Shown here: one piece after another, positions 2,798-47,041 of the stretch
How the letters are laid out: the number at the start of each line of letters is the position of its first letter
Position numbering within the stretch: position 1 is the stretch's first letter
NCBI GenBank assembly: GCA_934131695.1
Contig: CAKOZV010000001.1
Location: 10,060 to 74,059, forward strand
DNA: 64,000 nucleotides
Direction of reading: 5' to 3'
From: an uncultured Bacilli bacterium
GTDB taxonomy: Bacteria; Bacillota_I; Bacilli_A; RF39; UBA660
Position numbers and translations under genes: made by a program
The notes under the pieces: generated by a model
Told to the model about the DNA's origin: nothing
What the model saw: the letters and a program-made list of their open reading frames with translations, nothing else
The model's database searches: none

Positions 2798-5284
2798 ATG
2801 GGATTATTTACAAGATTATTTGATCATGAATATAAAGAATTAAAAAAATTTGAATCTTTAGCAGACAAAATAGTAGCCTTAGATGAAGACTATCAAAAGT
2901 TATCTGATGAAGAGTTAAAGAATAAAACAGAGGAATTTAAGAAACGTTTAGAAAATGGAGAAACACTAGAAGATATTTTAGTAGAAGCTTTTGCTACCGC
3001 AAGAGAAGCAGCTTATCGTGTTATAGGAGAAAAACCTTTCTATGTTCAGATACTAGGTGCTTTAGCAATACACTATGGTAATATAGCAGAAATGAAAACT
3101 GGTGAAGGAAAAACACTAACATCCGTTTTACCAGCTTACTTAAATGCATTAGATGGAAAAGGAGTACATATCATTACTGTTAACGAATATCTAGCTACTC
3201 GTGATGCTGAATGGATGGGTGGAATTCATAGATTTTTAGGTCTAACAGTAGGAGTTAATACAAGAGAATTAAGTCCTAAAGAAAAGCAAGAAGCTTATGC
3301 TTGTGATATTTTATATTCTACTAATAATGAAATTGGATTTGATTATCTAAGAGACAATATGGTTATTAGAAAAGAAGATAGAGTACAAAGACCATTAAAT
3401 TTTGCTATCGTTGATGAGGTTGATTCAGTATTAATAGATGAAGCAAGAACTCCATTAATTATTTCTGGTGGACAATTAGTTAGTGCAAACCTTTATCAAG
3501 ATGCTGATAGCTTTGTTAAAGGATTAAAAGATGATGTGGATTATCTATATGATGAAACTACTAAGAGTGTAACATTAACTGATGAAGGTAGTGAAAAAGC
3601 AGAAAAAGCTTTTCGAGTTAAAAATCTTTATGAAGTAGAAAATGCAACTTTAGTACATTATATTAATCAAGCTTTAAGAGCAAACTATTCTATGAAATTA
3701 GATGTAGATTATGTTGTTCAAGATGGAGAAGTTGTCATAGTAGACCAATTTACTGGACGTTTGATGAAAGGACGTGCTTATAGTGATGGACTTCATCAAG
3801 CAATTGAAGCTAAAGAAGGAGTTCGTATTAATCAAGAAACTAAAACTTTAGCAACTATTACTTTCCAAAACTTATTTAGAATGTATAAAAAATTATCTGG
3901 TATGACTGGTACTGCTAAAACAGAAGAAGAAGAGTTCCGTGATATTTATAATATGTATGTTATTTGTATTCCAACTAATAAACCAGTTGAAAGAATTGAT
4001 GCTTCTGACTTAGTATTTGCTACTAAAAATGCTAAGTATAAAGCTATTATTAATGAAGTAAAAGAAAGATATGCTAAAGGTCAACCAGTATTAATTGGTA
4101 CTATTGCTATTGAAACTAGTGAATTAATAAGTGCTTTATTAAAGAAAGAAAAGATTCCACATGAAATATTAAATGCTAAGAATCATGCAAGAGAAGCTGA
4201 AATTATTTCTAAAATTGGTCAACATAAGTCAGTTACTATCGCTACTAATATGGCTGGTCGTGGTACTGATATTAAATTATCAGATGAGATAAGAGCACTT
4301 GGTGGATTATGTGTTATTGGTACTGAACGTCATGAATCTCGTCGTATTGATAATCAGTTAAGAGGACGTTCTGGTCGTCAAGGAGATCCTGGATTTACAC
4401 AGTTCTTTGTATCTATGGAAGATGATTTAATGGTTCGCTTTGGTAGTGAAAAAATTAAAGAAATGATGACTAGTTTTGGATTTGGTGATCAAGCTATTCA
4501 AAACAAATACTTTTCTAAAGCTATTACAACTGCTCAAAAAAGAGTTGAAGGAAATAACTTTGATGCTAGAAAACAATTATTACAATATGATGATGTAATG
4601 AATACTCAACGTGAAATCATGTATGGTAGAAGAAATGAAATACTAGATAGTGAATCTGTTCATGAACAAGTTCTTGAATGTATGAGAAATTATGTTACTG
4701 ACTTAGTTAAGTCACATACTATAGATGGTATTTTAAGTGAACAAGATAAGAAAGAAATAGTATCTTTTGCTAACGAAAATTTACTAGATAAAGATATTAC
4801 TGAAAATGATATTAGTTCACTATTAGATGATGATATGATAGACTTCTTATATAATAAAGCAAAAGAGGAATATGAAGAAAAACTTAGTGATGTTCCAGTA
4901 GAAATAACTAGTGAATTTGAAAAAGCATTATCTTTACAAGTCATTGATAACTATTGGATGGAACAAATTAATGTAATGAGTCACTTACGTGAAGGTATCT
5001 ATTTACGTAGTTATGGTCAAGAAGATCCATTAAGAGCATATAGTACTGAAGGATTTGATTTATTTGATCAAATGTTACAAAAGATTGATCATGATGTTAC
5101 TATATTCTTACTAAAAGCAGAAATACAAAAAACTGTTGAAAGAAAACCAGTTACAAGAAATGTTCAAACTAATGATGATAAATCAGATTCAGTAAAGAAA
5201 CCAAAGAAAAGTAAAAAAGTAGGACGTAATGATCCTTGTCCATGTGGTTCAGGAAAAAAATATAAACAATGTTGTGGTAAATAA
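2798..5284 (+). CDS. secA: Preprotein translocase ATPase SecA
   Basis: 828 aa. Motor motifs MKTGEGKT, DEVDSVLIDEARTPLIISG and TNMAGRGTDI. C-terminal zinc-binding SEC-C motif CPCGSGKKYKQCCGK. Confidence 0.97.
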   Translation: MGLFTRLFDHEYKELKKFESLADKIVALDEDYQKLSDEELKNKTEEFKKRLENGETLEDILVEAFATAREAAYRVIGEKPFYVQILGALAIHYGNIAEMKTGEGKTLTSVLPAYLNALDGKGVHIITVNEYLATRDAEWMGGIHRFLGLTVGVNTRELSPKEKQEAYACDILYSTNNEIGFDYLRDNMVIRKEDRVQRPLNFAIVDEVDSVLIDEARTPLIISGGQLVSANLYQDADSFVKGLKDDVDYLYDETTKSVTLTDEGSEKAEKAFRVKNLYEVENATLVHYINQALRANYSMKLDVDYVVQDGEVVIVDQFTGRLMKGRAYSDGLHQAIEAKEGVRINQETKTLATITFQNLFRMYKKLSGMTGTAKTEEEEFRDIYNMYVICIPTNKPVERIDASDLVFATKNAKYKAIINEVKERYAKGQPVLIGTIAIETSELISALLKKEKIPHEILNAKNHAREAEIISKIGQHKSVTIATNMAGRGTDIKLSDEIRALGGLCVIGTERHESRRIDNQLRGRSGRQGDPGFTQFFVSMEDDLMVRFGSEKIKEMMTSFGFGDQAIQNKYFSKAITTAQKRVEGNNFDARKQLLQYDDVMNTQREIMYGRRNEILDSESVHEQVLECMRNYVTDLVKSHTIDGILSEQDKKEIVSFANENLLDKDITENDISSLLDDDMIDFLYNKAKEEYEEKLSDVPVEITSEFEKALSLQVIDNYWMEQINVMSHLREGIYLRSYGQEDPLRAYSTEGFDLFDQMLQKIDHDVTIFLLKAEIQKTVERKPVTRNVQTNDDKSDSVKKPKKSKKVGRNDPCPCGSGKKYKQCCGK

Positions 5285-5292
5285 ACCTGCAA

Positions 5293-5324
5293 ACCCGCAT
5301 AAAATAAGGAATTGCGGGTTTTTC
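5293..5324 (+). terminator. secA terminator
   Basis: 7-bp stem acccgca/tgcgggt (5293-5299 / 5313-5319) followed by TTTTT. Confidence 0.7.
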
Positions 5325-6250: not shown

Positions 6251-6337
6251 CCATGTGGAAGTGGTAAAAAATATAAGCAATGTTGTGACAAATGACTCGT
6301 AAAGTCCCATAAATAAAGGGAAAACGCGAGTTTTTCT
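6251..6337 (+). repeat. Degenerate non-coding copy (copy 2) of the secA 3' end plus terminator
   Basis: ccatgtggaagtggtaaaaaatataagcaatgttgtgacaaatga... aligns with secA 5240-5325. It would read PCGSGKKYKQCCDK* but has an in-frame stop a few codons upstream. The downstream hairpin/T-run region is also homologous. Confidence 0.8.
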
Positions 6338-10014: not shown

Positions 10015-10087
10015 CTGTGTGGCTCAGGAAAAAAATATAAAAATTGTTGTGGTAAATAAGCTCGCAAGTCTGCATAAAATAAGGAAT
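10015..10087 (+). repeat. Degenerate non-coding copy (copy 3) of the secA 3' end plus downstream sequence
   Basis: ctgtgtggctcaggaaaaaaatataaaaattgttgtggtaaataagctcgcaagtctgcataaaataaggaat aligns with secA 5240-5312 at roughly 85% identity, including the sequence after the stop codon. It would read CGSGKKYKNCCGK*. Confidence 0.8.
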
Positions 10088-12010: not shown

Positions 12011-12052
12011 AGGGTGAGAGAAAAATGAAAGTTCAAAAATTAATCAAAATGG
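11981..12052 (+). repeat. Direct repeat B, partner of 10751-10822
   Basis: See repeat A. It spans the NUDIX stop codon, the RBS and the first 9 codons of the 12025 membrane gene. Confidence 0.8.
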
Positions 12053-12855
12053 CTTATAAAGAAAATAAAAGAAGTTCTCTAGCTATATATTTAATATTGA
12101 GATTTTTAGTTATATTATGTATGGTTCTTCAACTTATAAGAGGAGATTTAAATAATGCTTTATTATGTTTATTATCATTAATACTATTATTTGCACCATT
12201 ATTTATTCAAAATAAATTTGAAATAACTTTGCCAGATGGATTAGAAATAGCTATATACCTATTTATATTTTCTGCTGAAATATTAGGCGAAATTAACAAT
12301 TTCTATGGAATAATTCCTTATTGGGATACAATGTTACATACAATTAATGGATTTTTAGCGACAGCTGTTGGTTTTTCCTTAGTAAATTTATTAAACAATA
12401 ATAGTACACATATTAATTTATCACCATTTTATTTGTGCTTAGTAGCTTTTTGTTTTTCTATGACGATAGGAGTATTATGGGAATTTTTTGAATATGGAAG
12501 CGATAAAATATTAAAACTCGATATGCAAAAAGATACGATTGTACAAGAAATATCATCAGTAGCATTAAATCCTGATGGTAAAAATAAGCCAGTCATAATT
12601 GATAATATTGGAAAAACGGTTATTTATGATACTAAAGGAAATATAATCCAAACAATAGATAACGGTTATTTGGATATAGGTATAAATGATACTATGAAAG
12701 ATTTATTTGTTAATTTTGTTGGTGCTTTAGTATTTAGTTTCTTTGCTTACTTTGGCTTGAAACATAATGAAGATAATTTATTTATAAATAATTTTGTTCC
12801 AACAAAAGGTAAAAGAGAAATGGCAAAATCTGTAGCAAAATTTCTATCAAAATGA
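12025..12855 (+). CDS. Polytopic membrane protein of unknown function
   Basis: 276 aa with several long hydrophobic helices. RBS GGGTGAGAG. Ends just before IR-L. Confidence 0.6.
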   Translation: MKVQKLIKMAYKENKRSSLAIYLILRFLVILCMVLQLIRGDLNNALLCLLSLILLFAPLFIQNKFEITLPDGLEIAIYLFIFSAEILGEINNFYGIIPYWDTMLHTINGFLATAVGFSLVNLLNNNSTHINLSPFYLCLVAFCFSMTIGVLWEFFEYGSDKILKLDMQKDTIVQEISSVALNPDGKNKPVIIDNIGKTVIYDTKGNIIQTIDNGYLDIGINDTMKDLFVNFVGALVFSFFAYFGLKHNEDNLFINNFVPTKGKREMAKSVAKFLSK

Positions 12856-12868
12856 TATTTATAATAGG

Positions 12869-13002
12869 GGGGCTGTCGAGAAATTAGTAAGATAACTAAT
12901 TTACGATAATCCCCTTTTTTAATTTTCCTTTTAAAATAAAGAAATTAAATTATACAAAAAGAGGCTTTTGGCAAAATTATACAATTTTGCGACAGCCCCT
13001 TT
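12869..13002 (+). repeat. IR-L: 134-bp inverted repeat, left arm
   Basis: Its reverse complement matches 17021-17154 at 133/134 positions, by manual alignment. Internally it is two hairpins: ggggctgtcgagaaattagt...actaatttacgataatcccc+T6 and gaggcttttggcaaaatt...aattttgcgacagcccc+T5. Both ends carry the motif GGGGCTGTCGNNAAATT in inverted orientation. Confidence 0.9.
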
Positions 13003-13058
13003 TTATTTAAGAGTAGAATTATTATTATTTTTGTATATTATACTAATAGGAGGTTGTT

Positions 13059-14171
13059 ATGTACAATAATGATAATTTTGAGAAGTTAAAAAAAAGAATA
13101 GATAAATGTAGAAATTGTTATATTCAAGGACCAACAGGACCTAAAGGAGAAAAGGGAGATACTGGAGATAGAGGAATACAAGGACCTACTACTATAGAAG
13201 TAGGTATTACAGAAACAGTAGAGTCACATCAAGAAGCTAAAGTAGAAAATATTGGTACCAATGAAGATGTAGTTTTAAGATTTAGAATACCAAAAGGGGA
13301 GCAAGGGATAGAGGGAAAAATAGGACCCCAAGGAATTCCCGGACCTAAAGGAGATAAAGGAGATATTGGACCCCAAGGAATAAAAGGTGAAAAAGGAGAT
13401 CAAGGACCAGCCACTATTCAAATTGGAAATGTTGAAACAGTTGATCCGACAAAAGATGCTGAAGTTGTAAATACTGGTACACCTGTTGATGTAGTTTTAG
13501 ATTTTAAAATACCAAAGGGAGAGAAAGGCGACCAAGGAGAAATGGGACCTAGGGGATTACCAGGAGAAATAGGAAGAACAGAACATATAGCTATTGATGA
13601 GACAGAAACTTTAGAACCAGGTGAACCAGCTCAAGTTATGGATACTTTTGAAAACTGGGTACATCATTTAGCATTTTTAATTCCAAAAGGTGAAAAAGGT
13701 GCTACGGGAGAAAGAGGTCCACAAGGACCAGCCGGACCACCAGGAACAGAATTTGTATCTTCTTATGGGATTAGATATTCAATGTCTACTACTCCACTTG
13801 CTTTACTTCAAGGAACAGATAATATTATTCCTTTACCTGAAAAAGGAGCAGCTTTTCTTACCGAATATCCAGATGGTAATTCAATTAAAATAAAAGAAAA
13901 TGGAGTTTATCTCATATCTTATTCATTATGTGGTGCTACCAATGAAGAATGTTCTTTAACTATGTCAGTAAGAGCTAATGATATATTACAACCAGCAACA
14001 AATCTTACTAGTGAGTTTCAAGCACAAATAATTAATTCTATAAGTTCATCTACCATTGTAGCACTAAGTAAAGATGATTTAATAACATTAAATGTAAAAC
14101 CATCTATGGCAGTTAACATAACGTTTAATGGAAGTACTAATGCGATATTAAGTGTTGTAAAAATACATTAA
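13059..14171 (+). CDS. Collagen-like triple-helix repeat protein with a C-terminal BclA/C1q-like globular domain
   Basis: Four Gly-X-Y blocks of about 7, 13, 7 and 7 triplets (GPTGPKGEKGDTGDRGIQGPT etc.). They alternate with three roughly 35-aa modules ending (F/L)xIPKGE(K/Q)G (TIEVGITETVESHQEAKVENIGTNEDVVLRFRIPKGEQG and variants). The C-terminal roughly 140 aa is beta-rich (ENGVYLISYSL...AILSVVKIH). AGGAGG RBS and no signal peptide. Confidence 0.85.
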   Translation: MYNNDNFEKLKKRIDKCRNCYIQGPTGPKGEKGDTGDRGIQGPTTIEVGITETVESHQEAKVENIGTNEDVVLRFRIPKGEQGIEGKIGPQGIPGPKGDKGDIGPQGIKGEKGDQGPATIQIGNVETVDPTKDAEVVNTGTPVDVVLDFKIPKGEKGDQGEMGPRGLPGEIGRTEHIAIDETETLEPGEPAQVMDTFENWVHHLAFLIPKGEKGATGERGPQGPAGPPGTEFVSSYGIRYSMSTTPLALLQGTDNIIPLPEKGAAFLTEYPDGNSIKIKENGVYLISYSLCGATNEECSLTMSVRANDILQPATNLTSEFQAQIINSISSSTIVALSKDDLITLNVKPSMAVNITFNGSTNAILSVVKIH

Positions 14172-14217
14172 AAGTAATGAAAATTGATTATTTCAAAATA
14201 CTTTTCCAGCATAATTT

Positions 14218-16095
14218 ATGGTAAAGGAAAGTGATAATATGGAAATAATTAATAATAATACAGTGGTAGTAACTAATAGTGAAGAATTAAAAGATGTACT
14301 AAGTAATACAAATGATTATAATTATGTATATTTAGGTAATGATATAACTTTAACGAGTGGATTTAAAATAAATGCTAATAAAACAAAAGTAACTATTGAT
14401 GGTACATATAATAATATTAAAGCAACCTATACAAATAATTTAACTGATAGTACAGATGTTATAACGGTTAGTACTACGAATAAAAGAATTATACTTAAAA
14501 ATATGAATATAGTTAGTTCCCATACCTATAGCGTAGTTTATGTACCATCTCATCCTAATTATTCTAACTTAACTGTTGAGTATAATAATATTAATTTTAA
14601 TGGTATAGAACTATCTAATAATTACTATGGTTCAACAAAGATTATGGATTCTATTATAACTGTCAGTGATACAAATGGTGTAACTGCTCAAAAAGTATGT
14701 GATTCTAATAGAATAATAATAGGTGGAAATACAACAATTACAAGTAATTCCACTACCAACACAGTATTCTTCTTTAATGATGTAATACCATCTTATATTA
14801 AAATAGTACCCAATAGTAATGTAAATATCACAACTAATAAAGAATTAATGAATGGTACTAATCGACTTGATTTAATAGTAGGACATGGAGCAGAATTCCT
14901 TTTAACTACTGGAAATGGTTTTGCTATCACAACAACACATGGAGCTAGGAATGTCATAATTGAACAAATGGCTAATTTTACTTTTATAGAAAAGAGCCAT
15001 CAACGAGTCCCTATGTGGAATGTATTTGGTGATTTTAAAGTTTTAGAAGGAGCTAGTATATCAGTACTAAATACTTATATGACTACTCCAACTGATAATT
15101 ATAATATCTATTTTAAAGGTACAAACCAAAAATTTATATTAGATAATCCTAAATATGTGAATATCTATACTAAAAATGCCAATGTAGTATATGCCAATAA
15201 TTCTGTTGATTTTTCCTTTAAATTTTCAAGGATTAATATGTGGATTTATGCTCTAGATTATACAAGTGCTTGTACACTAGATGACCAACCTGCATTTTTC
15301 TGGTATAAAGAAAATACTCCTGCTGAAATAACTGGCTCTTTTAGTAAAGATACTACTACAGTTACATCTCACAATTTTACAGATAGTGAATTAAGCTCAA
15401 TATCAGATATAACTAGTTTTAAATTTCAAGGTATAAAGATATTAACTTTAGGACAATTAAAAACTAATGTACATCCAGTCCTCAATTCTACCAATACCAT
15501 ATCAGGTCATACCACACCATATGCTAATGTAAAAATAGAATATGATAGTAAAAACTTACTAGCAACTGCTGATGAAAATGGTTTATTTGAAGCTGATCTT
15601 GATACTACTATTCCTGATAATACAAGAATTAAAATAATATCTTGTTTAAATAGTTGTTATACCGAAAGAAAAGTGACAGTACCATTTAGTGGAGAATTAA
15701 CCCTTTTAAGAGTAACAGAGAATATTCCTTTTAGTATGAATCCGTCATCTATTAAACCACTTATTTTACCTAAAAAGAATCAAACAATAGTAACAGTAGT
15801 TGATAGTAGAATAAATAGTAGTAAGTGGAAACTATATTTAAACTATACAAATCCAATGATAGAAAAAGAGGGAAAAGTATTAATAGATTCATTAGTCTTT
15901 AAAAAGTTTGATAATGAGGAGATTATTTTAAAGACTAATAAGAAACTAATATATGAATCAAGTGATAATGGTGGAAATATAAGTGTAAGTAATGTTACTT
16001 TTTCTACGGATAAAGGATTATTACTTAAACCGAGTAAAGATTTATTAGAAGATGAGGATTATTCTACATTAATAATTTGGAGTGTAGAGGAGTAA
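14218..16095 (+). CDS. Large Asn/Thr-rich protein, probable right-handed beta-helix (adhesin or pectate-lyase-like fold)
   Basis: 625 aa. The likely start is ATG 14239 (MEIINNNTVVVTNSEELKDVL). Repetitive N/T/I/V-rich strand pattern (NITLTSGFKINANKTKVTIDGT...). No signal peptide. The fold is an inference only. Confidence 0.45.
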   Translation: MVKESDNMEIINNNTVVVTNSEELKDVLSNTNDYNYVYLGNDITLTSGFKINANKTKVTIDGTYNNIKATYTNNLTDSTDVITVSTTNKRIILKNMNIVSSHTYSVVYVPSHPNYSNLTVEYNNINFNGIELSNNYYGSTKIMDSIITVSDTNGVTAQKVCDSNRIIIGGNTTITSNSTTNTVFFFNDVIPSYIKIVPNSNVNITTNKELMNGTNRLDLIVGHGAEFLLTTGNGFAITTTHGARNVIIEQMANFTFIEKSHQRVPMWNVFGDFKVLEGASISVLNTYMTTPTDNYNIYFKGTNQKFILDNPKYVNIYTKNANVVYANNSVDFSFKFSRINMWIYALDYTSACTLDDQPAFFWYKENTPAEITGSFSKDTTTVTSHNFTDSELSSISDITSFKFQGIKILTLGQLKTNVHPVLNSTNTISGHTTPYANVKIEYDSKNLLATADENGLFEADLDTTIPDNTRIKIISCLNSCYTERKVTVPFSGELTLLRVTENIPFSMNPSSIKPLILPKKNQTIVTVVDSRINSSKWKLYLNYTNPMIEKEGKVLIDSLVFKKFDNEEIILKTNKKLIYESSDNGGNISVSNVTFSTDKGLLLKPSKDLLEDEDYSTLIIWSVEE

Positions 16096-16149
16096 TGCTT
16101 TTTCCAAATATTAAATTGATTCATAAAATATTGCGTAATGAGGTGAAAT

Positions 16150-16491
16150 ATGAAAAATGATTATATTTATATTAAACTTTATAATAATAAAGAAGTAAAA
16201 TTAAATGTTAAATTAAAGGATAAATGTAATAAGGTGGTTTTTGAAGGTAAAACTGATAATTTAGGAAGAATTAAAATACCAATATGTAACAATGAACTTT
16301 ATAATCTAATAATATATTCTAATTTAACAGTTATCAAAGTATCTTTAATCGCTAAAAAGAATAGAGTCTATCATATAAATATTAATAATAAAAGCAATGG
16401 TAAACTCATTACAATTTTACTAATGGATAAGAATTATCCTAATATAAAAATAGAAGGAGGTAAAATGACATTATGGCAAGACAGACAATAA
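16150..16491 (+). CDS. Small protein with a carboxypeptidase-regulatory/prealbumin-like beta-sandwich signature
   Basis: 113 aa. KVVFEGKTDNLGRIKIP resembles the CarboxypepD_reg-type motif. GAGGTGA RBS. Confidence 0.4.
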   Translation: MKNDYIYIKLYNNKEVKLNVKLKDKCNKVVFEGKTDNLGRIKIPICNNELYNLIIYSNLTVIKVSLIAKKNRVYHININNKSNGKLITILLMDKNYPNIKIEGGKMTLWQDRQ

Positions 16492-17018
16492 ACATAACAA
16501 ATGGTAAAGGAAGTATTGAGTTAGTTAATGGAAATTATAATGCTACAGCAGTAGTTGGAGGATATGATTCTTCAACTCTTACTCCAACTAGTGTAAATGT
16601 GGTAGATGGTGTTGATACATATGCTTTTACTATAAGTGCTACAGGAACTTTAACTCTTCATGTGACTGATACAGGTGATCCTGATACTGGTGTTGATATT
16701 GTTGGTGCAAAGTTTATAAGAACTGATAGTACAGGGGCAATAGTTGGAACAGAAGCTGTTACTAATCAAGATGGTAATGCCGTATTTAATAATGTTCCTT
16801 TCGCTGCAACTGGAAGTAATCCAATATATTACAAACAAATAGCAGGAGATGGAGGACATACATTTGATGATGGTGTTAAATCAATTACTATGACTGTAGA
16901 AACCCAAACTGTAGAAATAACAAATCCTCAAGCTCCACTTAGAAACTTTACATTAATGGATGAAAGCTATCCAAATATACCAATTATAGATGGACAAATA
17001 ATACTTCAAGATAATTAA
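16473..17018 (+). CDS. Ig-like/prealbumin-fold (Cna-B/SdrD-B-like) protein
   Basis: 181 aa. LTLHVTDTGDPDTGVDIVGAKFIRTDSTGAIVGTEAVTNQDGNAVFNNVPF is typical of Cna-B/SpaA-type beta-sandwich repeats. Overlaps the previous ORF by 19 nt. No signal peptide. Confidence 0.45.
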   Translation: MARQTINITNGKGSIELVNGNYNATAVVGGYDSSTLTPTSVNVVDGVDTYAFTISATGTLTLHVTDTGDPDTGVDIVGAKFIRTDSTGAIVGTEAVTNQDGNAVFNNVPFAATGSNPIYYKQIAGDGGHTFDDGVKSITMTVETQTVEITNPQAPLRNFTLMDESYPNIPIIDGQIILQDN

Positions 17019-17020
17019 TG

Positions 17021-17154
17021 AAAGGGGCTGTCGCAAAATTGTATAATTTTGCCAAAAGCCTCTTTTTGTATAATTTAATTTCTTTATTTTAAAAGGAAAA
17101 TTAAAAAAGGGGATTATCGTAAATTAGTTAGCTTACTAATTTCTCGACAGCCCC
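17021..17154 (-). repeat. IR-R: 134-bp inverted repeat, right arm
   Basis: Reverse complement of 12869-13002 with one mismatch (IR-L aagAtaac versus aagCtaac). Starts 2 nt after the stop codon of the 16473 gene and ends 7 nt before the jet promoter -35. Confidence 0.9.
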
Positions 17155-17161
17155 TTTTTTG

Positions 17162-17190
17162 TTTACAAGTAGCTACTCATATGTTAAAAT
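17162..17190 (+). promoter_or_regulatory. Candidate sigma-A promoter of the jet operon
   Basis: TTTACA (17162-17167), 17-bp spacer, TAAAAT (17185-17190) preceded by TGT (extended -10). Lies 30 nt upstream of jetA. Confidence 0.45.
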
Positions 17191-17219
17191 AACGAAGAAA
17201 AGAAGAAAGCAGGTAGTTT

Positions 17220-18686
17220 ATGGAAAATAAGTCTTTAGAACAAATAGATGAAGTAAAATATTTAGCTCAAGAAAATACTCCTCGATATAGGCTTATAATG
17301 AAATATTTATTTAATAAATATGAAGAAGCAGAGTACTGGCTATATAAAGAAGAAATATATACTGAGGTAAAAAAAACAATAACTGATTATACTGAAGAAG
17401 AATGTGATAGGGATTTAGAATTTTTACTAAATAATGGTTCTTTAACTAAACTACAAGATACCCAAAATATTAATACAATCAGTGACTTTAAGTTTCATAA
17501 CTTTCGTTATCAAATGACTGATAAAGCCGTAATAATAGAAAGAATGACTATAGAGCTAGAAGAAATAGAGGTAAAAGTAGCATCATTAGAGCCAAGATTA
17601 TTTGAAAGAATTAATAACCTAATTAAAAGACTTACTGATATTTATAATCTAGATGAGAATCAAATATATGAATTATGGATAGATATAAATAATGACTTTA
17701 AAAGCTTGAATGAACATTATCAAGACTTTTTGAAAAAATTTCATGAGGCTAAAACTGAAGAACTACTACAAAGTGAAGCATTTTTAGAATTTAAAAGTAG
17801 TGTAATAAATTATATTAATGATTTTATTAATAGTTATATAAAAAATTCTACATCAATAAAAAACTATTTAATAGAGATTGATGATAAAAAGACAAAATAT
17901 CTAATGGATAGTCTTATTTCCCATCAGAAAAAAGCACCTAAGATATCACCAGAATTTGATTATGAAAAATTAAGAAAAGTAAACTATGGAAAATGGCAAA
18001 GCCTTAAGAAATGGTTTGTTTCATCTACTACCCAGAGTGAAGGAGAACGTCTATTAGAAGCAACACAAAATATTATTCAAAAAATATACAAATATGCCAG
18101 TTCATTAATAGAATTACATGGAAATATGATTAATAGGAAAGAAGAGTATAAACATATTTGTCATTTATTTGATAATTTAGAAACAGTTGAAGATGCAAGT
18201 AAATTATCATCAGCAATATTTGGAATAACTGTAGCTAATCATTATAAAATGTCATCAATGATTAATACTGATTCCTTAATTAAAAGTTATGATGTACCAC
18301 CAATTGAAGTACCAATAAATACAACTATTAAAGAATATAAAATTAAAAGTCAAAATTCACAGATTGTTGATAAATCAATGGAAAAGGAACGTATCTTAGA
18401 AGAGATAAGACAAAATGAAAAAATTAGAAAAGAAAAGATTAGAAATTTAATAAAATCAGGTAAAATAGTTTTAGAAAAAGAGATATATTTGGATGAAATT
18501 GAAAGAAGATATGTATTAGGTCTAATTGAAAAAGCAAAAAAAGAGTCAAATAAAGAATCAGAATTTGGCTATTCATACTATATAACTAATGAAACTAAAG
18601 AAAAATGTAAGATAATCTCTAAAGATGGAATATTTGAGTTATTAGGTAGAACGATAGTGATTGAAGTGGGTGAAGATAATGAATAA
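17220..18686 (+). CDS. jetA: Wadjet JetA (TIGR02677/DUF2397-like, kleisin-like subunit)
   Basis: 488 aa. First gene of four overlapping genes whose sizes and order match the TIGR02677-02680 cassette. The N-terminus YLAQENTPRYRLIMKYLFNKY resembles the family's conserved start. Assigned by context plus recollection. Confidence 0.7.
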   Translation: MENKSLEQIDEVKYLAQENTPRYRLIMKYLFNKYEEAEYWLYKEEIYTEVKKTITDYTEEECDRDLEFLLNNGSLTKLQDTQNINTISDFKFHNFRYQMTDKAVIIERMTIELEEIEVKVASLEPRLFERINNLIKRLTDIYNLDENQIYELWIDINNDFKSLNEHYQDFLKKFHEAKTEELLQSEAFLEFKSSVINYINDFINSYIKNSTSIKNYLIEIDDKKTKYLMDSLISHQKKAPKISPEFDYEKLRKVNYGKWQSLKKWFVSSTTQSEGERLLEATQNIIQKIYKYASSLIELHGNMINRKEEYKHICHLFDNLETVEDASKLSSAIFGITVANHYKMSSMINTDSLIKSYDVPPIEVPINTTIKEYKIKSQNSQIVDKSMEKERILEEIRQNEKIRKEKIRNLIKSGKIVLEKEIYLDEIERRYVLGLIEKAKKESNKESEFGYSYYITNETKEKCKIISKDGIFELLGRTIVIEVGEDNE

Positions 18687-19869
18687 TGATATAGAAAAAG
18701 AAATGAAAGCCCTATTATATAACTTTTGGATAACAAAAGATAAAGATAAAGAACTGTATTATCAGATAAAGAATAATCAAAATAAAATGAAAGAATTTAT
18801 TTCTAAAAACTTAGGTAGTAATTTAATAATTCATGATAGATTTATAAAATTAGAAAAGATTCCAACAATAGTTAAATCTAATGCTAAACTAAATAATTTT
18901 TATTCAGTATTAGAATACGTAATCTTAACAATAATGTTATTATTTCTTGAAGATAAGACAAGAGGAGACTATTTTGTTCTATCTGATTTAATCGAATATG
19001 TAAAAAACACTTCAATAACTTTAGAATTAAACCATATACCCGATTGGAATAAAGTTCAAGATAGAAGATGCTTATCAAATGTAATATCATTATTAGAAGA
19101 ATTACAAATTATAAAGGTAAAAGACTCGTCTAAAGTATCATTCATCGAAAGTACAGAAGCAGAAACACTATATGAGTCGTTAGGAACGTCTAATTATTTG
19201 ATGAGAATGTTTGATGATAATATAAATGAATTAACAACACCAGAAGATTTTATCAAAAGTGAATTTGCTACTCAAGATGAAGAAAAAGGGGATATAAGAA
19301 GATATAAAGTATTTAGAAATATCTTATATACACCAGCAGTATCTTCTAAAGATTTATCAATACCTGAACTAGATTATATAAAGAAAAACCGCAATTATAT
19401 AAAATCAGAAATAGATAAGAACTTAAATATGGAAGTAGAAATAACCCATAATTTAGCTATATTATATGATGAAGAAAGTAATACCCAGAAAGATAACTTT
19501 CCTAATAGTAAAAAACTTACAGAAATTGTATTAATGGTAAATGAAAAATTATTACAAGAGATAAATGCTAATAAAATAGTGTTAGATAATCATGAAATAG
19601 CTACTATAAAAGAAGATTACTTTGAAAATATAATAAAAGACATAAAGAAGACAAAAGCACCATATATAGGAAAAACCTTATTAAGAGAAACAGACAAGAA
19701 ATTTTATGACATGATATTAGAATATATGGAAAAGTATAACATTATAGAAAAAAATAATGATGAGATAATAATTTATCCAACAGTAGCTAGATTAGTAGGC
19801 AAGGCAAAGGTTATAGAAAAAGATACAGCAAAGCAAACAAGTTTATTTGGAGGTAGTAATGAATTATAA
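18661..19869 (+). CDS. jetB: Wadjet JetB (TIGR02678/DUF2398-like, KITE-like subunit)
   Basis: 402 aa. The probable start is ATG 18679, which overlaps the jetA stop (ATGAATAA). Position and size fit JetB, but no catalytic motifs can confirm it. Confidence 0.65.
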   Translation: MKWVKIMNNDIEKEMKALLYNFWITKDKDKELYYQIKNNQNKMKEFISKNLGSNLIIHDRFIKLEKIPTIVKSNAKLNNFYSVLEYVILTIMLLFLEDKTRGDYFVLSDLIEYVKNTSITLELNHIPDWNKVQDRRCLSNVISLLEELQIIKVKDSSKVSFIESTEAETLYESLGTSNYLMRMFDDNINELTTPEDFIKSEFATQDEEKGDIRRYKVFRNILYTPAVSSKDLSIPELDYIKKNRNYIKSEIDKNLNMEVEITHNLAILYDEESNTQKDNFPNSKKLTEIVLMVNEKLLQEINANKIVLDNHEIATIKEDYFENIIKDIKKTKAPYIGKTLLRETDKKFYDMILEYMEKYNIIEKNNDEIIIYPTVARLVGKAKVIEKDTAKQTSLFGGSNEL

Positions 19870-22800
19870 AGTAACAAAAATAGGATTATTAAACTTTTGG
19901 TATTTTGACGATGAAGAATTTAATTTCTTTGATGGAAAACTATTATTAAGAGGTGGAAATGGTAGTGGTAAATCAGTAACTATGCAGTCATTTATCCCTT
20001 TGATATTAGATGGTAATAAAACACCATCTAGACTGGATCCGTTTGGTACTAAAGAAAAAAGAATAGAAGACTATTTATTAGGACCATCTGATGGAGAACA
20101 AAAAGATGATGCTATTGGCTATCTTTACATGGAAACATATAATGAAGAAAAAGATAAATATATAACAATCGGAATGGGACTTCACGCAAGAAAAGGAAGA
20201 TCAACTGATTTTTGGGGTTTTGCTTTAAAAGATGGAAAGAGAATAGGAAAAGACTTTGAACTTTATAAAAGTTATAGCAATAAAGTATTAATGACTAAAA
20301 AAGAATTAAAGGCAAATATTGGTGTAGATAATGCCTTTGTAGAAACAACTAAAGAATATAAAAGTTTAGTAAACGACTTATTATTTGGATTTAAAGATTT
20401 AGACTCATATGATGAATTTATAAATGTGTTACTACAATTAAGAAGTTCTAAATTATCAAAAGAATATAATCCTGTCAAACTAATGTCTATATTAAGTAGT
20501 GTTCTTCAACCACTAACAGATGATGATATAAGACCACTATCTGAAGCTATTGAAGATACTAATAAGACAAAAGAGAAGATAGATACATTAAATAATAATT
20601 TAAAAGACTTATCAAATATATCTAAGTCATATCAAAATTATAATGAGATAAATTTATATAACAAAGCTAAAATAGTAAAAGATAGCCAAGAAAGAATTGA
20701 ACTTTTAACTAAAGAATTAGAAACTAAAGAAACAAATATTAAAGGTATAAACAATAGACTAAAGGAAATAGATGAAAGTATTAATTATCTAGAACAAGAA
20801 TCAGTAGAAATAACAACAAAGTTAGCAAGTATTGATAATAAAGACTTAAAAGATTATACCGAAAAATTAAATGAGTTAAAAATAGATATTGAAAAAGTAA
20901 AAACTTCAATAGATAATATTAAACAAAAGCTAGAAAGAAATATAGATAGAGAAAGAAAATGTCAAAATGATATTGAAAAAATAGATGACAAAATATATCA
21001 AAAAGAAAAAGCAATAACAAGTATTAAAGAAGATATAGCTTTATTAAGTGAAGAGATAAAAATATCAGATATAAATATAGGTATAAAGAATAAAGAAATA
21101 AATTTTGATTACTTAGAAGATAGAATATTAAAGTATAAGAATAGGTTAAATCAGATAAAGATAAAGTTAGAAGAAAAGGAGAATCTTGAAAATTCATTAA
21201 GTAAGCTAGAAGAAGAAAACGAAATAGCTAAGAAGGAACTAGAAGAAAAAGAAGATGAAAGAAAAAATGATATCAAAAGATTAAATGAAGAAATAGATAA
21301 TTTTAAAGATGAAGTAAATAAAATAGATAAACAAAGTAAGGTAGTAAAACTTGGTGAAGATAGAAAAAGAAAGATATTTGACTTAATAAATAATTATAAT
21401 GTAGAAAACTATATAGTAGCCAAAGAAGAATATCAAACAGAAATAAGCTATTATGAAACGATGGTTATTACTGAAAAGAGTAATATTGAAAATAAAATAA
21501 CTAATGAAAAGAAAGAGTTAAATAGTTTAAAAGAAGAATTAAGAGTATTAGAAGAAACTGACGAATTAGAATATGTTGAAGAAGAACTAACTAAAGAATC
21601 AGAAATATTACTAAAAGAGGCAAACATACCATTTACTACATTATATAAAGTAATAGAATTTAAAGATAATATTAAGGAAGAAGAAAAAAATAAATTAGAA
21701 GAGTTATTGATATCTTTAAATATTTTAAATGCTAAATTAGTACCAGCTAAGTATTTTAATGATATTAAAAATATTAAGTCAGTATTTCTAAAGAAAGGTA
21801 CACCAAAGAAAAATAATATATTAACCTACTTTAATGTTATAGATAATAGTGTTATATCTAAACAGGAAATAACAGATATTTTATCTAGTATAAGTGTAGA
21901 TAAAAGTGATGAATTCTATATAAATGCAGATAACTATGAATATGACTTTTTATTAGGTTATCCATCATCAAAATATCAAAGTAAATATATTGGAATAACT
22001 AAAAGACAAGAAGAACATAAAAGACAAATTAGTTTAAAAGAAGAAGAAATATTAGAAAAAGAAAAAATATTAAATAATTATCAAAATATATTATTATCAA
22101 TAAATGATAAATTAGATGATATTAAAAAAGTAGCAACTATGTTTCCTAATAGTAAAAACTTAGAAGAGATAAATACGGCTATAACCAAAATAACAACTTC
22201 TATAGATTTAATATTTGAACGAAGTAAAAAGCTAACTGAAGAAGCTAATAAAATAAATAATGATATTAAGGTTAAAATAGAAGAAATAAATAAAATCAAA
22301 GAAAATATTAATGTTCCTTTAAACTTATCAAGTTATAAAAAGGCTTTAGCTCTAACTGATGAATTAACTAAAAACGTAATTACATTAAAAAATAATATTG
22401 AAACACAAAATTCTTATAATGAACAAAAATTAAGTAAAGAAATATCGTTAGAAAATGCAAAAGAAGAAATAGAATATCAAAATGGAGAACTATCAGATAA
22501 AACTAAGATATTAGGAGAATTATCAAGTAAAAAGAAAGCTATAGATGAAATATTAGAAAATCCTGATTATAAAAAACAAATAGAAGAGATAAAAAGATTA
22601 ACTGAAAGAGCAAAAAAGATACCTGATGAAAATAATGCATTAAGAGAAGAAAAAGGAAAATTAGAAAATAGCTTAGAAAACTTAAATGTTTTGCTAGATA
22701 CAAATAAAAGTAATTTAGAGAAAGAAAAATTAAAGCTGGATTTAAGAAATAATATCTTAGAAAAAGAATATAGTTTAAATTATGTTTATAAAGATGAAGA

Positions 22801-23911
22801 ATTAAATGCAGATAAAATTATATTAGATTTAAAAAGTAGAGAGAATAGTGACATTAAAAGAGCCTTTGAAAACTACTTTATTGCTTTCAACAATCATAAA
22901 CAAAATCTACTTGATTATAGATTGACTAGTAAAGAAATATTTGCAAGTAAGGAAGAATTAAGAGAAGAATTTTTAGAAAAAGGTTTAGAAAAAGCTGAGA
23001 TTGAAGAAATACTAGATTTAATGCCTAGACAAGATTTAGAAACAACTTATCAAGGTAAAAAGTTAAATATCTATGAATTAACAGATTGCTTAAAAGAGAC
23101 TATAAAAGAAAGTGAAAATTATATAAGTACTCAAGAAAGACATTTATTTGAAGATATTTTATTAAAAACAGTAGGTAATAAAATAAGAGATAAGATAGAA
23201 TCATCTAAAGAATGGGTAAAGAAAATAAATACAATAATGAAAGAAACTCAAATAGATAGTAATTTATCTTTTGAACTAGAATGGAGAAGTAAAACAGCTT
23301 TTACAGAAGATGAACTAGATACCAAAGAATTAGTTAGATTATTTAAAATAGATGCTGGCCAGTTGAATCCCAAGGATAGTGAAAAATTAATCACTCATTT
23401 TCGTAGTCAAATAAAGAAAGAATTAGAATTTAATGAAAAGATAAATGATAGTTATTCAAATATAATATTTAAAGTATTAGATTATAGAAATTGGTTTGAA
23501 TTTAAATTGTACTATAGAAGAAAATCTGGTGAAAAGAAAGAATTAACTAATAAAGTCTTCTCAATACTAAGTGGTGGAGAAAGAGCTAAAAGTATGTATG
23601 TTCCATTATTTGCAGCTGTTTATGCTAAACTACTAAATGCTAAAAAATTATCATTGAGATTAATAGCTCTTGATGAAGCTTTTGCAGGAGTAGACAACAG
23701 TAACATTAGAGAAATGTTTGATATTTTAGCTCAGTTAAATCTTGATTATATTTTAACGTCTCAATCATTATGGGGTGATTATGACACAGTAAGAGAACTA
23801 TCAATATGTGAACTTATAAAGGATGAAATACATAAAGCTGTAGCAGTTCGTCATTATCGTTGGAATGGGCATTCTAAAGAGATATTAGAAAAAAGTGATG
23901 TATATGAATAA
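19847..23911 (+). CDS. jetC: Wadjet JetC (TIGR02680-like SMC-family ATPase)
   Basis: About 1350 aa. The probable start is ATG 19859, with a GGAGG RBS. N-terminal head: IGLLNFWYFDDEEFNFFDGKLLLRGGNGSGKS (Walker A). The roughly 900-aa K/E/N-rich middle is coiled-coil. C-terminal head: LSGGERAKSMYVPLFAAVYA (signature) and LRLIALDEAFAGVD (Walker B). Confidence 0.85.
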   Translation: MEVVMNYKVTKIGLLNFWYFDDEEFNFFDGKLLLRGGNGSGKSVTMQSFIPLILDGNKTPSRLDPFGTKEKRIEDYLLGPSDGEQKDDAIGYLYMETYNEEKDKYITIGMGLHARKGRSTDFWGFALKDGKRIGKDFELYKSYSNKVLMTKKELKANIGVDNAFVETTKEYKSLVNDLLFGFKDLDSYDEFINVLLQLRSSKLSKEYNPVKLMSILSSVLQPLTDDDIRPLSEAIEDTNKTKEKIDTLNNNLKDLSNISKSYQNYNEINLYNKAKIVKDSQERIELLTKELETKETNIKGINNRLKEIDESINYLEQESVEITTKLASIDNKDLKDYTEKLNELKIDIEKVKTSIDNIKQKLERNIDRERKCQNDIEKIDDKIYQKEKAITSIKEDIALLSEEIKISDINIGIKNKEINFDYLEDRILKYKNRLNQIKIKLEEKENLENSLSKLEEENEIAKKELEEKEDERKNDIKRLNEEIDNFKDEVNKIDKQSKVVKLGEDRKRKIFDLINNYNVENYIVAKEEYQTEISYYETMVITEKSNIENKITNEKKELNSLKEELRVLEETDELEYVEEELTKESEILLKEANIPFTTLYKVIEFKDNIKEEEKNKLEELLISLNILNAKLVPAKYFNDIKNIKSVFLKKGTPKKNNILTYFNVIDNSVISKQEITDILSSISVDKSDEFYINADNYEYDFLLGYPSSKYQSKYIGITKRQEEHKRQISLKEEEILEKEKILNNYQNILLSINDKLDDIKKVATMFPNSKNLEEINTAITKITTSIDLIFERSKKLTEEANKINNDIKVKIEEINKIKENINVPLNLSSYKKALALTDELTKNVITLKNNIETQNSYNEQKLSKEISLENAKEEIEYQNGELSDKTKILGELSSKKKAIDEILENPDYKKQIEEIKRLTERAKKIPDENNALREEKGKLENSLENLNVLLDTNKSNLEKEKLKLDLRNNILEKEYSLNYVYKDEELNADKIILDLKSRENSDIKRAFENYFIAFNNHKQNLLDYRLTSKEIFASKEELREEFLEKGLEKAEIEEILDLMPRQDLETTYQGKKLNIYELTDCLKETIKESENYISTQERHLFEDILLKTVGNKIRDKIESSKEWVKKINTIMKETQIDSNLSFELEWRSKTAFTEDELDTKELVRLFKIDAGQLNPKDSEKLITHFRSQIKKELEFNEKINDSYSNIIFKVLDYRNWFEFKLYYRRKSGEKKELTNKVFSILSGGERAKSMYVPLFAAVYAKLLNAKKLSLRLIALDEAFAGVDNSNIREMFDILAQLNLDYILTSQSLWGDYDTVRELSICELIKDEIHKAVAVRHYRWNGHSKEILEKSDVYE

Positions 23912-25148
23912 TGTAAATAAAGAATTAGCAAACTATTTAAAGTCAAAAAAAGGCTTAACAAGATTAATGAACAAATTAAAAGAAAAATATATATCGCTTT
24001 CTAGACCTAGTGGTACTGTTGTACTTAATAATCTAACAGAAATAGAAAGTATAGATATAAGTAATTTACTAGGTAAAAGAATTAATAAGGAAAAATTAAA
24101 AACTTCTTTTAAGGAAATAACTAAGAAAATAAATGAAGGAAAATACAGTGATTTCACTTGGAGAGAATTACTAAACTACTACTTTAATGAGAATATAGTA
24201 ACTAAGGAAGAAGAAAAGTTCAATAAAAAGCAGGAAGAAGTAGAATTTTATAAAAAGTTATTTGAAGAAAATAATAATAAAAAGTATATAAAAACTATAA
24301 AGGATATAATTATAAATGATGAAATAATTAGTAAAATAATTAAACAAAAATATCATAAGAATAAGATTACTCTACAAGAAGAACTTAACAATATACTATT
24401 GTTATTAGATAATATTCCGGAATATCCTACCTCTTTAGCAGTTTATGCATCATTAACAGGTAATCCACATTATTTAGATTTAAATAAAACCACAAGTACT
24501 TTATTTCTTAAGATATTATCAAAGATAAAGAATATAGAATATAAGGAAAAGTTAGAATCAAAAATAAATATACTATCAGAGATAAATGTTTATATTGATC
24601 CTATATCTAATTTTGTAATAACTTACAAGTTAACAGGAAATTCCATATTAAATGAACTAGCTAAAAATAATGAAGTAGTTAACTTAAATTTATTAAATAT
24701 AAATAAACTAAGTAAAGTAGATACAAATAATAAAATAGTATATGTCTTTGAAAATCCATCTTTACTAACCTCATTAATTGATTTAAATGTTCCAATAGTA
24801 ATTACATCTGGAATTCCCAATATATCCTTATATACATTATTAAAAAAATTAGAGGAAAGTAATACTAAAATATATTATAATGGTGATTTTGATCCAGAAG
24901 GATTATTAATAGCAGAAAAGTTAAAACAAAGATTTCCTAATATAGAATTATTTTGCTATAGTGATATAGATTATAATAACGCTAAATCAAAAGAAAAAAT
25001 CTCTAATAGCAGGTTGAAAAAATTAGATAATATTAATTCAAAGGAATTACAAGAAATAAAAAATATAATACTAGAAAATAAAGTATCAGCATATCAAGAA
25101 CAAAATCTAGATAGAATTAGAAAATATATTGAAAAATCTAAACTTTAA
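23895..25148 (+). CDS. jetD: Wadjet JetD (TIGR02679/DUF2399-like, Toprim nuclease subunit)
   Basis: About 415 aa. Overlaps the jetC end. The C-terminal region VYVFENPSLLTSLID...VITSGIPNISLYTLLKKL...IYYNGDFDPEGLLIAEKLK matches the Toprim-like DUF2399 pattern (conserved E, and DxD in GDFD). Confidence 0.8.
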   Translation: MMYMNNVNKELANYLKSKKGLTRLMNKLKEKYISLSRPSGTVVLNNLTEIESIDISNLLGKRINKEKLKTSFKEITKKINEGKYSDFTWRELLNYYFNENIVTKEEEKFNKKQEEVEFYKKLFEENNNKKYIKTIKDIIINDEIISKIIKQKYHKNKITLQEELNNILLLLDNIPEYPTSLAVYASLTGNPHYLDLNKTTSTLFLKILSKIKNIEYKEKLESKINILSEINVYIDPISNFVITYKLTGNSILNELAKNNEVVNLNLLNINKLSKVDTNNKIVYVFENPSLLTSLIDLNVPIVITSGIPNISLYTLLKKLEESNTKIYYNGDFDPEGLLIAEKLKQRFPNIELFCYSDIDYNNAKSKEKISNSRLKKLDNINSKELQEIKNIILENKVSAYQEQNLDRIRKYIEKSKL

Positions 25149-25666
25149 TGATGGAGGTAATTATGGACTATATTATAAGAAAAATGAATAAAAATGATTG
25201 CTTTTCTGTAGCAAAAATAGTAACAACTGCATGGAATGAAACTTATAGAGGTATAGTAAATGATGAATTTTTAGATAATCTTTATTTAAATGAACAAGAA
25301 AGAGCAAATAATTTCTATAAAGAATTTGATAAGAATATTAATCATCAATATGTTCTTGAAATAAATAATGAGATAGTAGGGTTTATTAATGTAGATGTAT
25401 CTGATGATGCTGAATATAATGATTGTGGAGAGTTGTATGCTTTATATTTGATAAATGATTATAAGGGACAGGGTTATGGTAGAAAGCTATTTGCTATGGC
25501 AATTAAAGAATTAAAAAATATGGGATTTACAAAAATGATAGTAGGTTGTTTAGTAGCTAATCCTACAAATGAATTTTATAGACATATGGGTGGAAAATTA
25601 ATAAAACAAAGAGTATTTGAAAAACTAAAACTACCTGAAAATGTATATTTGTTTGAAGAAATATAA
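25148..25666 (+). CDS. GNAT family N-acetyltransferase appended to the jet operon
   Basis: Motif A LYLINDYKGQGYGRKLFAMAIKELK. ATG 25148 overlaps the jetD stop (TAATG). The better start is ATG 25163, 6 nt after GGAGG. No terminator lies between jetD and this gene. Confidence 0.8.
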   Translation: MMEVIMDYIIRKMNKNDCFSVAKIVTTAWNETYRGIVNDEFLDNLYLNEQERANNFYKEFDKNINHQYVLEINNEIVGFINVDVSDDAEYNDCGELYALYLINDYKGQGYGRKLFAMAIKELKNMGFTKMIVGCLVANPTNEFYRHMGGKLIKQRVFEKLKLPENVYLFEEI

Positions 25667-46663: not shown

Positions 46664-47041
46664 GGGGATGTCTTGGTTTCGACAGGAATAGTAGAGCATA
46701 GATAGCAAGTCGAATTATCTACGTCACAGATTAAACCAGAATAACTGGAAACAAAATTAAAAATGTACTTGCAAACTTTGGTGGAAACACTAGTTTAGCA
46801 TTTGCCTAAGAATAGGCTTGTACGCTGTCTTTCTTAATTTCTTACGTTAAGAATGTACGGTTCAATTTAGTAAGATATAATTATTTATCGTCTTAGTAAA
46901 TAATTGAATATTATAAGACTAGAATTATAGTTTGGTTGATTATTTCTTTACTATAATTCGAATTTAATAAATAATCTAAACTTGTAGAAGTTTATGTAGC
47001 TCTATTTTTGGACAGGGGTTCGATACCCCTCATCTCCACCA
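46664..47041 (+). ncRNA. ssrA: tmRNA (ssrA)
   Basis: The 5' end GGGGATGTCTTGGTTTCGACAGG pairs with the 3' tRNA-like end GGACAGGGGTTCGATACCCCTCATCTCCACCA. The internal tag frame ends at TAA 46807-46809 (..GNKIKNVLANFGGNTSLAFA*). An extended -10, TGTTATAAT, lies at 46644-46652. Confidence 0.9.

Follow-up and report, generated by a model that had tools for sequence, protein, structure and literature searches.

A Pair of Inverted, Terminator-like Units Brackets a Resident Gene Cassette beside a Wadjet Operon in a Gut Bacilli Lineage

We analyzed 64,000 nucleotides of DNA from an uncultured Bacilli bacterium (GenBank contig CAKOZV010000001.1, positions 10,060 to 74,059; the whole stretch is called the window), in which two near-identical 134-nt arms lie in inverted orientation around a four-gene cassette, directly upstream of a jetABCD (Wadjet) operon. 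An inverted repeat of this size resembles a transposon or a recombinational switch, and comparison across the population shows neither. [quoted passage not shown]

In the mechanism we propose, each arm would be a self-contained, quasi-palindromic double intrinsic terminator of ~131 nt. Because of its symmetry, such a unit would stop transcription arriving from both sides and in both orientations. Within a low-GC gut Firmicute, a single near-clonal lineage carries the unit at the terminator positions that flank the operon of a BclA-like protein, with the right copy forming the left edge of an 8.1-kb jetABCD block. The cassette would probably be strongly insulated, at the level of transcription, from the upstream DUF2238 gene, and the jet operon likewise from the cassette. 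The inverted layout of the two copies would be incidental and have no function of its own, and their likeness would reflect a recent duplication, possibly with occasional gene conversion. We think it most likely that the duplication came about by recombination or by template switching, at hairpins flanked by A/T in an accessory region prone to recombination, rather than by classical transposition.

Results

The inverted repeat is genuine and unique in the window

In a repeat search, 12869-13002 and 17021-17154 emerged as inverted arms that lie 4018 nt apart and agree at 133 of their 134 positions, the identity reported in the original prediction. This pair is the sole long inverted repeat in the 64 kb, the runner-up being 43 nt long at 72% identity. 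The arms differ only at position 24 of the unit, which lies in the hairpin 1 loop and reads A at 12892 and G at 17131 of the + strand. The sequence GGGGCTGTCGNNAAATT is present in four exact copies in the window, all of them at arm ends (expected number 0 from 100 shuffles), as anticipated by the earlier description of arms bounded by inverted short copies. The list of open reading frames (ORFs) likewise places exactly four genes between the arms (13059-17018), and the right arm, ending at 17154, stops 7 nt short of the jet promoter, the -35 box of which (TTTACA) starts at 17162; both points had been predicted. Two absences noted at the outset also held. We found no target-site duplication at either arm (flanks ..TATAATAGG / TTTTTATTT and ..TAATGAAA / TTTTTTGTT), and a Pfam search of ~12 kb on each side of the arms identified no recombinase or transposase, genes past ~33 kb having been sampled only. 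Independent assemblies from several samples and assemblers carry the arms again, including contigs assembled at k=141 that span a whole arm. The inverted repeat is thus genuine and not an assembly artifact.

The unit is predicted to fold into two hairpins followed by T-runs

The arms and their predicted structural elements are as follows (strain haplotypes are introduced in the next section).

12869-13002, + strand: left arm (unit proper 12869-12999), which takes the place of the 19-bp hairpin ACTATTCAAAGGAATAGTT of haplotypes B and C
17021-17154, - strand: right arm (unit proper 17024-17154, reversed), at the left edge of the lineage-specific block 17026-25145
12869-12885, + strand: 17-nt terminal inverted repeat GGGGCTGTCGAGAAATT, with partners at 12983-12999 (-), 17024-17040 (+) and 17138-17154 (-)
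12866-12920, + strand: hairpin 1 of the left arm (-22.0 kcal/mol) with its T-run at 12915-12920, the predicted first terminator of the DUF2238 gene
12956-13004, + strand: left arm hairpin 2, -17.1 kcal/mol (+) and -23.5 kcal/mol (-), preceded by an A-run, T-run 13000-13004; predicted bidirectional terminator
17020-17066, + strand: first hairpin of the right arm in + reading, -20.1 kcal/mol, T-run; predicted terminator of the cassette operon
17104-17160, + strand: second hairpin of the right arm in + reading, -20.1 kcal/mol, T-run 17155-17160; directly before the jet promoter

The four hairpins have predicted energies of -17 to -22 kcal/mol, and each is followed by U5-6 on the + strand, which is the direction of all neighboring genes. 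Folding z-scores of the arms are ~ -6, bearing out the claim that every arm consists of two hairpin/T-run modules. An A-run precedes every hairpin, so that a double terminator is predicted in both orientations, with hairpin 2 also predicted to act on both strands. The terminal repeats represent the outer halves of the two hairpins, and the entire unit can also fold as a single long stem. Their complementarity is 15/17 in the window and 18/18 in a copy from a second species (L020, described below).

The predicted fold, a stem followed by a U-rich tract, is the one expected for a SPRITE-like element or a Rho-independent terminator downstream of a gene. The three known copies begin 14 nt, 3-6 nt and 24 nt past stop codons, close to the 3' ends of genes. 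With a length of 131-134 nt, no ORF and terminal inverted repeats of 17 nt, it also has the size, non-coding nature and ends of a MITE. The terminal repeats and the hairpin/T-run anatomy together support the original view of the arms as discrete palindromic units of the MITE or repetitive extragenic palindromic (REP) type. An Rfam search of the unit returned only sub-threshold chance matches to eukaryotic microRNA models, and the window and L020 units, too few sequences for such an analysis, showed no clear compensatory pairs. We rejected a further idea, that the two arms pair into one long RNA stem as happens when rRNA operons are processed, since the left-arm terminators and the position of the cassette upstream region make a joint transcript unlikely.

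Both copies of the unit replace weaker hairpins in one lineage

We compared the window with ~45 related metagenome loci. Look-ups with the exact DUF2238, BclA, 181-aa protein and JetA sequences gave human-gut metagenome contigs of the same species; they return consensus assemblies and part of the indexed contigs. Five haplotypes were distinguished.

Haplotype A (window, L001, L006, L011-16, L032-34, L038, L047-48): DUF2238 gene, unit, cassette, unit, jetABCD, GNAT gene
Haplotype B (L003-5, L008, L009): flanks and cassette as in A, both units and Wadjet missing, 335 bp of spacer ahead of the GNAT gene
Haplotype C (L002, L010): cassette without units, then a gene for a 244-aa protein and one for a 2930-aa Glug-repeat protein
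Haplotype D (L007): cassette absent except for a 426-bp bclA fragment; a perfect palindrome after the DUF2238 stop codon, then other small genes
Haplotype E (L035-37, L039): cassette after a class II tRNA synthetase gene and a small ORF, no units, right hairpin as in B

Haplotype A is near-clonal, with L001 and L006 being 100% and 99.98% identical to the window, respectively. The unit is restricted to this haplotype, that is, to the Wadjet-bearing contigs, where both sites are filled whenever a contig covers both. At the left junction, haplotypes A and B agree up to ..TATAATAG and again from TTTTTATTTAA; between these points B contains the 19-bp hairpin ACTATTCAAAGGAATAGTT (-7.7 kcal/mol) and A contains the unit. 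At the right junction, homology ends at TAATGAAAGG. Past this point, a weak hairpin (-8.5 kcal/mol) follows in B, C and E; in A, the unit comes next, followed by the jet promoter and jetABCD, with homology returning just before the GNAT ATG. The right arm and jetABCD hence stand in place of the ~335-bp spacer of haplotype B and form a lineage-specific block of 8.1 kb. Both haplotype B hairpins are weaker than those of the unit at the equivalent positions. This junction comparison indicates that both copies replace native terminators and that neither is a simple insertion. The clean empty site expected for a MITE is missing on either side, with the left site holding another 19-bp hairpin and the right one being part of the 8.1-kb replacement. 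The DUF2238 stop codon is followed by three different hairpin modules, depending on the strain, and the terminator positions at this locus behave as module boundaries, or exchangeable modules.

The module of haplotype D is the palindrome GGGGCTGTCATGAAAT/ATTTCATGACAGCCCC at 3667-3704 of L007 (~ window 12867), a single, perfect 16-bp stem of -29.9 kcal/mol. Its first arm is common with the unit, it lies at the edge of a different cargo, and it may belong to the same element family. In L002 (haplotype C), TATAAAATTTTCAACAGCCC at ~14990-15010, upstream of the gene for the 244-aa protein, agrees at 18 of 21 positions with the 3' arm of hairpin 2 and is followed by a TTTACA -35 box, as at the jet promoter. 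Its local alignment is not significant against shuffles; we did not adopt TATAAAATTTTCAACAGCCC as a relic of the unit in haplotype C, which it may or may not be. In haplotype E, the cassette is 98.6% identical and its 181-aa protein unchanged, 72 nt of the upstream spacer are also found, at 96% identity, ahead of the bclA fragment of L007, and the downstream region contains extra small genes, among them one for a 160-aa protein, along with a truncated GNAT gene and a gene for a DDE_Tnp_1 transposase.

A diverged copy of the unit is present in another species

A scan for the terminal-repeat pair with its gap in one genome per species (185,579 species) returned a single locus, L020, from a rabbit-gut metagenome-assembled genome (MAG) named 'uncultured Bacilli'. 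Its copy of the unit is 80-82% identical over the full length and lies 24 nt past the stop codon of a DUF4143 ATPase gene, between convergent genes. By comparison, the CBAH gene that the two organisms have in common shows 66% protein and ~72% DNA identity; outside the unit, no non-coding similarity was detectable between the window organism and L020. The L020 unit is better conserved than coding DNA between the two organisms. Conservation is highest in the outer terminal repeats, with 88% and 100% identity, and in the inner hairpin 2 arm, with 91%; it is lowest in the inner hairpin 1 arm (72%) and the AT-rich center (73%). Two relatives of L020, L044 (93.6%) and L046 (85%), lack the unit, with homology ending 13 nt past the neighboring stop codon; their flanks are too diverged to define a filled/empty-site footprint. 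Read in unit orientation, the flanks of all three copies show no direct repeat (TAATAGG/TTTTTAT, ACAAAAAA/TTTCATT and GTTCAA/TTTTTTT).

The terminal-repeat-pair pattern had no match in viral (IMG/VR) and JGI metagenome contigs, nor did a looser hairpin-2 pattern, and a BLAST search of the unit against plasmids was likewise negative. The sole BLAST match among phages, of 48 nt, proved to be an ordinary bidirectional terminator. A regular expression for the core and an nhmmer profile detected no further copies over ~590 kb of related loci. Two copies are thus known in the 64 kb and one in the L020 MAG, and within the sequences covered we rejected a dispersed repeat family, as pattern, BLAST, regular-expression and nhmmer scans gave only L020 beyond the two arm sites. 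The only transposase seen was the DDE_Tnp_1 protein of L035, a locus without a match to the terminal-repeat core GGGGCTGTC, the transposase's own ends not having been examined. The copy number, which the original prediction had proposed to check, is very low in the sequences covered, and one copy is in another species; the static pair of duplicated terminators that the prediction had held out as its null case largely describes the locus, except that the unit does not occur only here.

We found relatives of JetA in three other contexts, none of which contains the unit.

96% JetA identity (L026, L042): gene order SecA, DUF3644 gene, Wadjet, GNAT; no cassette
87% JetA identity (L021-25): sister species; Wadjet after secA and rhuM
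82% JetA identity (L027-31): Wadjet beside genes for a tyrosine integrase, Abi_2 and Fic proteins and an N6/N4 methyltransferase

These relatives rule out the unit as a standard component of Wadjet. The similarity of other Wadjet operons to the window begins at the jet promoter, directly past the end of the right arm. The unit may have adjoined Wadjet in the immediate donor. In L023, a block resembling an integrative and conjugative element (relaxase, sortase, integrase) is located just upstream of Wadjet.

Genes and chromosomal setting of the locus

The genes around the arms are listed below.

12025-12855, + strand: DUF2238 membrane-protein gene, upstream; terminator position directly past ..TATAATAG
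13001-17025, + strand: conserved four-gene cassette block, with the same boundaries in haplotypes A, B, C and E
13059-14171, + strand: gene for a BclA-like collagen protein (ORF list, Pfam)
14218-16095, + strand: gene for a 618/625-aa protein with a weak Big_6 match
16150-16491, + strand: gene for a 113-aa protein, no family
16473-17018, + strand: gene for a 181-aa protein, no family
17162-17190, + strand: jet promoter (TTTACA, 17 nt, TG-n-TAAAAT), where homology to other Wadjet operons starts
17220-25148, + strand: jetABCD (Wadjet), with jetA 17220-18686, jetB 18661-19869, jetC 19847-23911 and jetD 23895-25148 (ORF coordinates)
25148-25666: GNAT acetyltransferase gene, abutting the jetD stop codon, with the 335-bp spacer of haplotype B gone

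The collagen-repeat protein matches the BclA C-terminal domain just under the Pfam cut-off, and its matches to PHROG tail fibers stem from the collagen repeats. These GXX-type repeats (13125-13726) constitute an internal direct-repeat family in the bclA-like gene, and L012 and L013 are among the contigs that break there. Because the GNAT gene abuts the jetD stop codon, with the 335-bp spacer lost, it is probably co-transcribed with jetABCD in lineage A.

The locus is chromosomal: clpB-like and secA genes are found upstream of it, while prfB, ftsEX and a tmRNA gene lie downstream. The tmRNA gene (46664-47041, tag peptide GNKIKNVLANFGGNTSLAFA) and a tRNA-Thr(CGT) gene (54383-54458) are ordinary chromosomal markers. 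The interval from secA to the GNAT gene is hypervariable, with at least six arrangements among the contigs compared. The 3' end of secA is present in three direct copies, at 5243-5312, 6254-6323 and 10018-10087, each comprising CGSGKKYK(Q/N)CCGK* and ~25 nt of downstream sequence. The first copy is the real gene end, and the other two (66% and 87%) are non-coding relics, which bracket blocks of GNAT, ASCH and ABC-transporter genes and resemble att-type scars. These relics suggest that insertions took place serially at the 3' end of secA. Further on, 36638-36937 and 38065-38364 form a direct repeat of 300 nt (72% identity) within neighboring genes for 470- and 477-aa proteins, which are probably tandem paralogues.

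Discussion

The original prediction had offered two meanings for the arms, a composite mobile cassette and an invertible segment. A composite, non-autonomous transposon in which arms and cassette move as a unit would account for identical inverted elements around a discrete gene block, for the sharp and recurrent cassette boundaries (13001-17025) and for the different upstream neighbor in haplotype E. The cargo of such a transposon should travel with its flanking elements; instead, the same cassette is found armless at the same locus in haplotypes B and C (~98% identity), and armless next to a different upstream gene in haplotype E. When strains are compared for the presence of the cassette, as had been proposed, it is thus kept in many strains without either arm, and we know of arms and cassette together at no other locus in our set. 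The cassette is 97.6-98.6% identical between haplotypes, on par with the flanking genes, and haplotype A differs from the others by 55-95 SNPs (single-nucleotide polymorphisms) in 4025 positions, which are spread evenly, with all lineages about equidistant. As boundaries, divergence and SNP spread are the same without the arms, the arms did not carry the cassette in, and the cassette is, by these alignments, resident DNA. With a target-site duplication missing as well, we consider a composite transposon extremely improbable.

Inversion of the 4-kb cassette between the arms, either as programmed phase variation of a spore-surface operon or as a RecA-mediated flip-flop, is in our view very unlikely. 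Homologous recombination would find substrate enough in a near-perfect repeat of 134 bp, proteins of the surface type, as encoded by the cassette, are often subject to phase variation, and distant recombinases can serve invertible sites (PMC9881135). There are also signs that the arms interact. In two assemblies from the same Hadza subject, the SNP in the right arm differs, L012 having the left-arm allele and L013 not, and the Logan unitig L017 ends at this arm-distinguishing position. The L012/L013 difference fits occasional gene conversion between the arms, mixed strains being the alternative. The arms differ at 1 of 134 positions (0.75%), less than the 1.4-2.6% divergence between lineages; either they were duplicated after the lineages had split, or their sequences are being homogenized. 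Of the two processes suggested earlier, recent duplication is hence supported by the low arm difference, and for ongoing homogenization the L012/L013 alleles provide a hint. Yet every contig joining a flank to the cassette in the four look-ups has the same orientation, a result in which consensus assemblies would miss a rare minority; the MEGAHIT k=141 contigs L015 and L048, whose k-mer exceeds the arm length, are among them, and we saw no inverted junction in any look-up. Logan k=31 unitigs break where the graph of an inverted repeat predicts (L018 and L019 at unit position 54; L040, composed of the cassette and 30 nt of each arm), a pattern that confirms the repeat and is blind to orientation. 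The cassette upstream region (13003-13058) lies inside the arms and the jet promoter outside, and the arms are predicted to terminate equally either way; a flip would therefore not change expression. Finally, there is no recombinase within ~12 kb, as had been stated, and the same cassette persists in other lineages without any inverted repeat. The second meaning thus gains no positive evidence.

A mobile origin of the unit itself is harder to set apart from our preferred interpretation. The unit could be a non-autonomous transposable element of MITE, SPRITE or REPIN type that was mobilized by a transposase encoded elsewhere and inserted twice independently. It is discrete, with terminal inverted repeats of 17-18 nt that are its best conserved part between species, its presence varies at all three known sites, the 82% identical L020 copy lies in an unrelated context and exceeds the conservation of coding DNA, and its location near 3' gene ends or between convergent genes is that of SPRITE (PMC3049150). 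However, no copy has a target-site duplication, the left 'empty' allele holds a different hairpin and points to replacement, and the copy number is minimal (two in 64 kb, none more in ~590 kb, one locus among 185,579 species representatives, no viral, JGI metagenome or plasmid matches). A transposase is absent nearby, and the L035 DDE locus, its own ends unexamined, lacks a GGGGCTGTC match. We regard such an element as possible though unlikely. Ordinary transposition appears disfavored because of the missing target-site duplication, the hairpin-for-hairpin replacement and the very low copy number; the terminal repeats and the L020 copy leave a MITE- or SPRITE-like mobile origin open. A new kind of small mobile element, which would replace intrinsic-terminator hairpins without a target-site duplication, seems quite unlikely. 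If it existed, a hairpin-recognizing enzyme or template switching at A/T-flanked stems might move the unit, which could then pass from one species to another as a portable 'terminator upgrade' and delimit gene modules in accessory or defense regions; the single L007 palindrome at the DUF2238 site would be a further family member.

Several points weigh against the double-terminator module that we favor. Its terminator function is predicted from the fold, and a simple terminator scan left the arms unflagged, as their loops and bulges exceed the limits of the scan. The pattern of best kept outer terminal repeats and a drifted hairpin 1 arm would also suit an element recognized by a transposase. 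Moreover, we know of no mechanism by which an inverted copy would land precisely on another terminator at a distance of 4 kb, and the recombinational route that we envisage is conjecture.

The locus is of interest primarily as a corrective, since a 134-bp inverted repeat with the look of a transposon or switch turns out to be neither once the population is compared. It documents a lineage-specific swap of weak terminators for a predicted strong, symmetric double terminator in a recombination-prone region beside Wadjet. A non-coding, terminator-like module that outconserves coding DNA across species and sits at variable junctions would provide a Firmicute example of the SPRITE-like class, whose small terminator-like repeats are poorly understood. 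Exchangeable terminator modules could further bear on how accessory and defense genes are slotted in without disturbing their neighbors.

Among known systems, REP doublets, bacterial interspersed mosaic elements (BIMEs) and REPINs often follow genes and can affect termination and mRNA stability; they share with our unit two related, imperfect inverted palindromes, a short linker and the possible folding into a single long hairpin. In Enterobacteria and Pseudomonas, REPINs reach copy numbers of tens to hundreds and are linked to a gene for a REP-associated tyrosine transposase (RAYT), whereas for the unit we saw neither a high copy number nor a RAYT, and the sequences are unrelated. Ordinary bidirectional intrinsic terminators share the order of A-run, GC-rich stem and T-run, and a stem similar to that of the unit (GGCTGTGGCAAAATG...) is a lone terminator in an unrelated fecal phage contig; the unit differs in that two hairpins form a fixed element of 131 nt, copied whole and kept across species. 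An analogy to integron attC sites was discarded, as the copies are inverted rather than direct and neither an integrase nor evident R'/R'' core sites were seen, the latter without a formal test. Invertons usually have a recombinase nearby, coexist in both orientations and move a promoter or swap coding segments (PMC9881135). The locus resembles them in its inverted repeats around a segment with surface-protein genes in a gut bacterium, and differs in that no nearby recombinase, second orientation or promoter/coding rearrangement was seen. With prokaryotic MITEs such as Correia repeats (Correia repeat enclosed elements, CREE), RUP, ERIC and bcr1 (PMC10969869), the unit shares size, terminal inverted repeats, strong structure, intergenic location and presence or absence from strain to strain; unlike them, it lacks a target-site duplication, a clean empty site and a known parent insertion sequence (IS), and its copy number is very low. 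SPRITE elements occur in ~30 copies per genome, contain a single 18-bp duplex with AAAA/TTTT termini only, are enriched between convergent genes and have been proposed to act as terminators (PMC3049150). The unit departs from them by its two mirror hairpins, its GC-rich terminal repeats of 17-18 nt and its two known copies in the host. In structure and location, it is nevertheless SPRITE-like: both are shorter than 200 bp, AT-rich and non-coding, have an unusually long stem followed by a U-rich tract, lack an established target-site duplication or an IS with matching terminal repeats, and are found near the 3' ends of genes.

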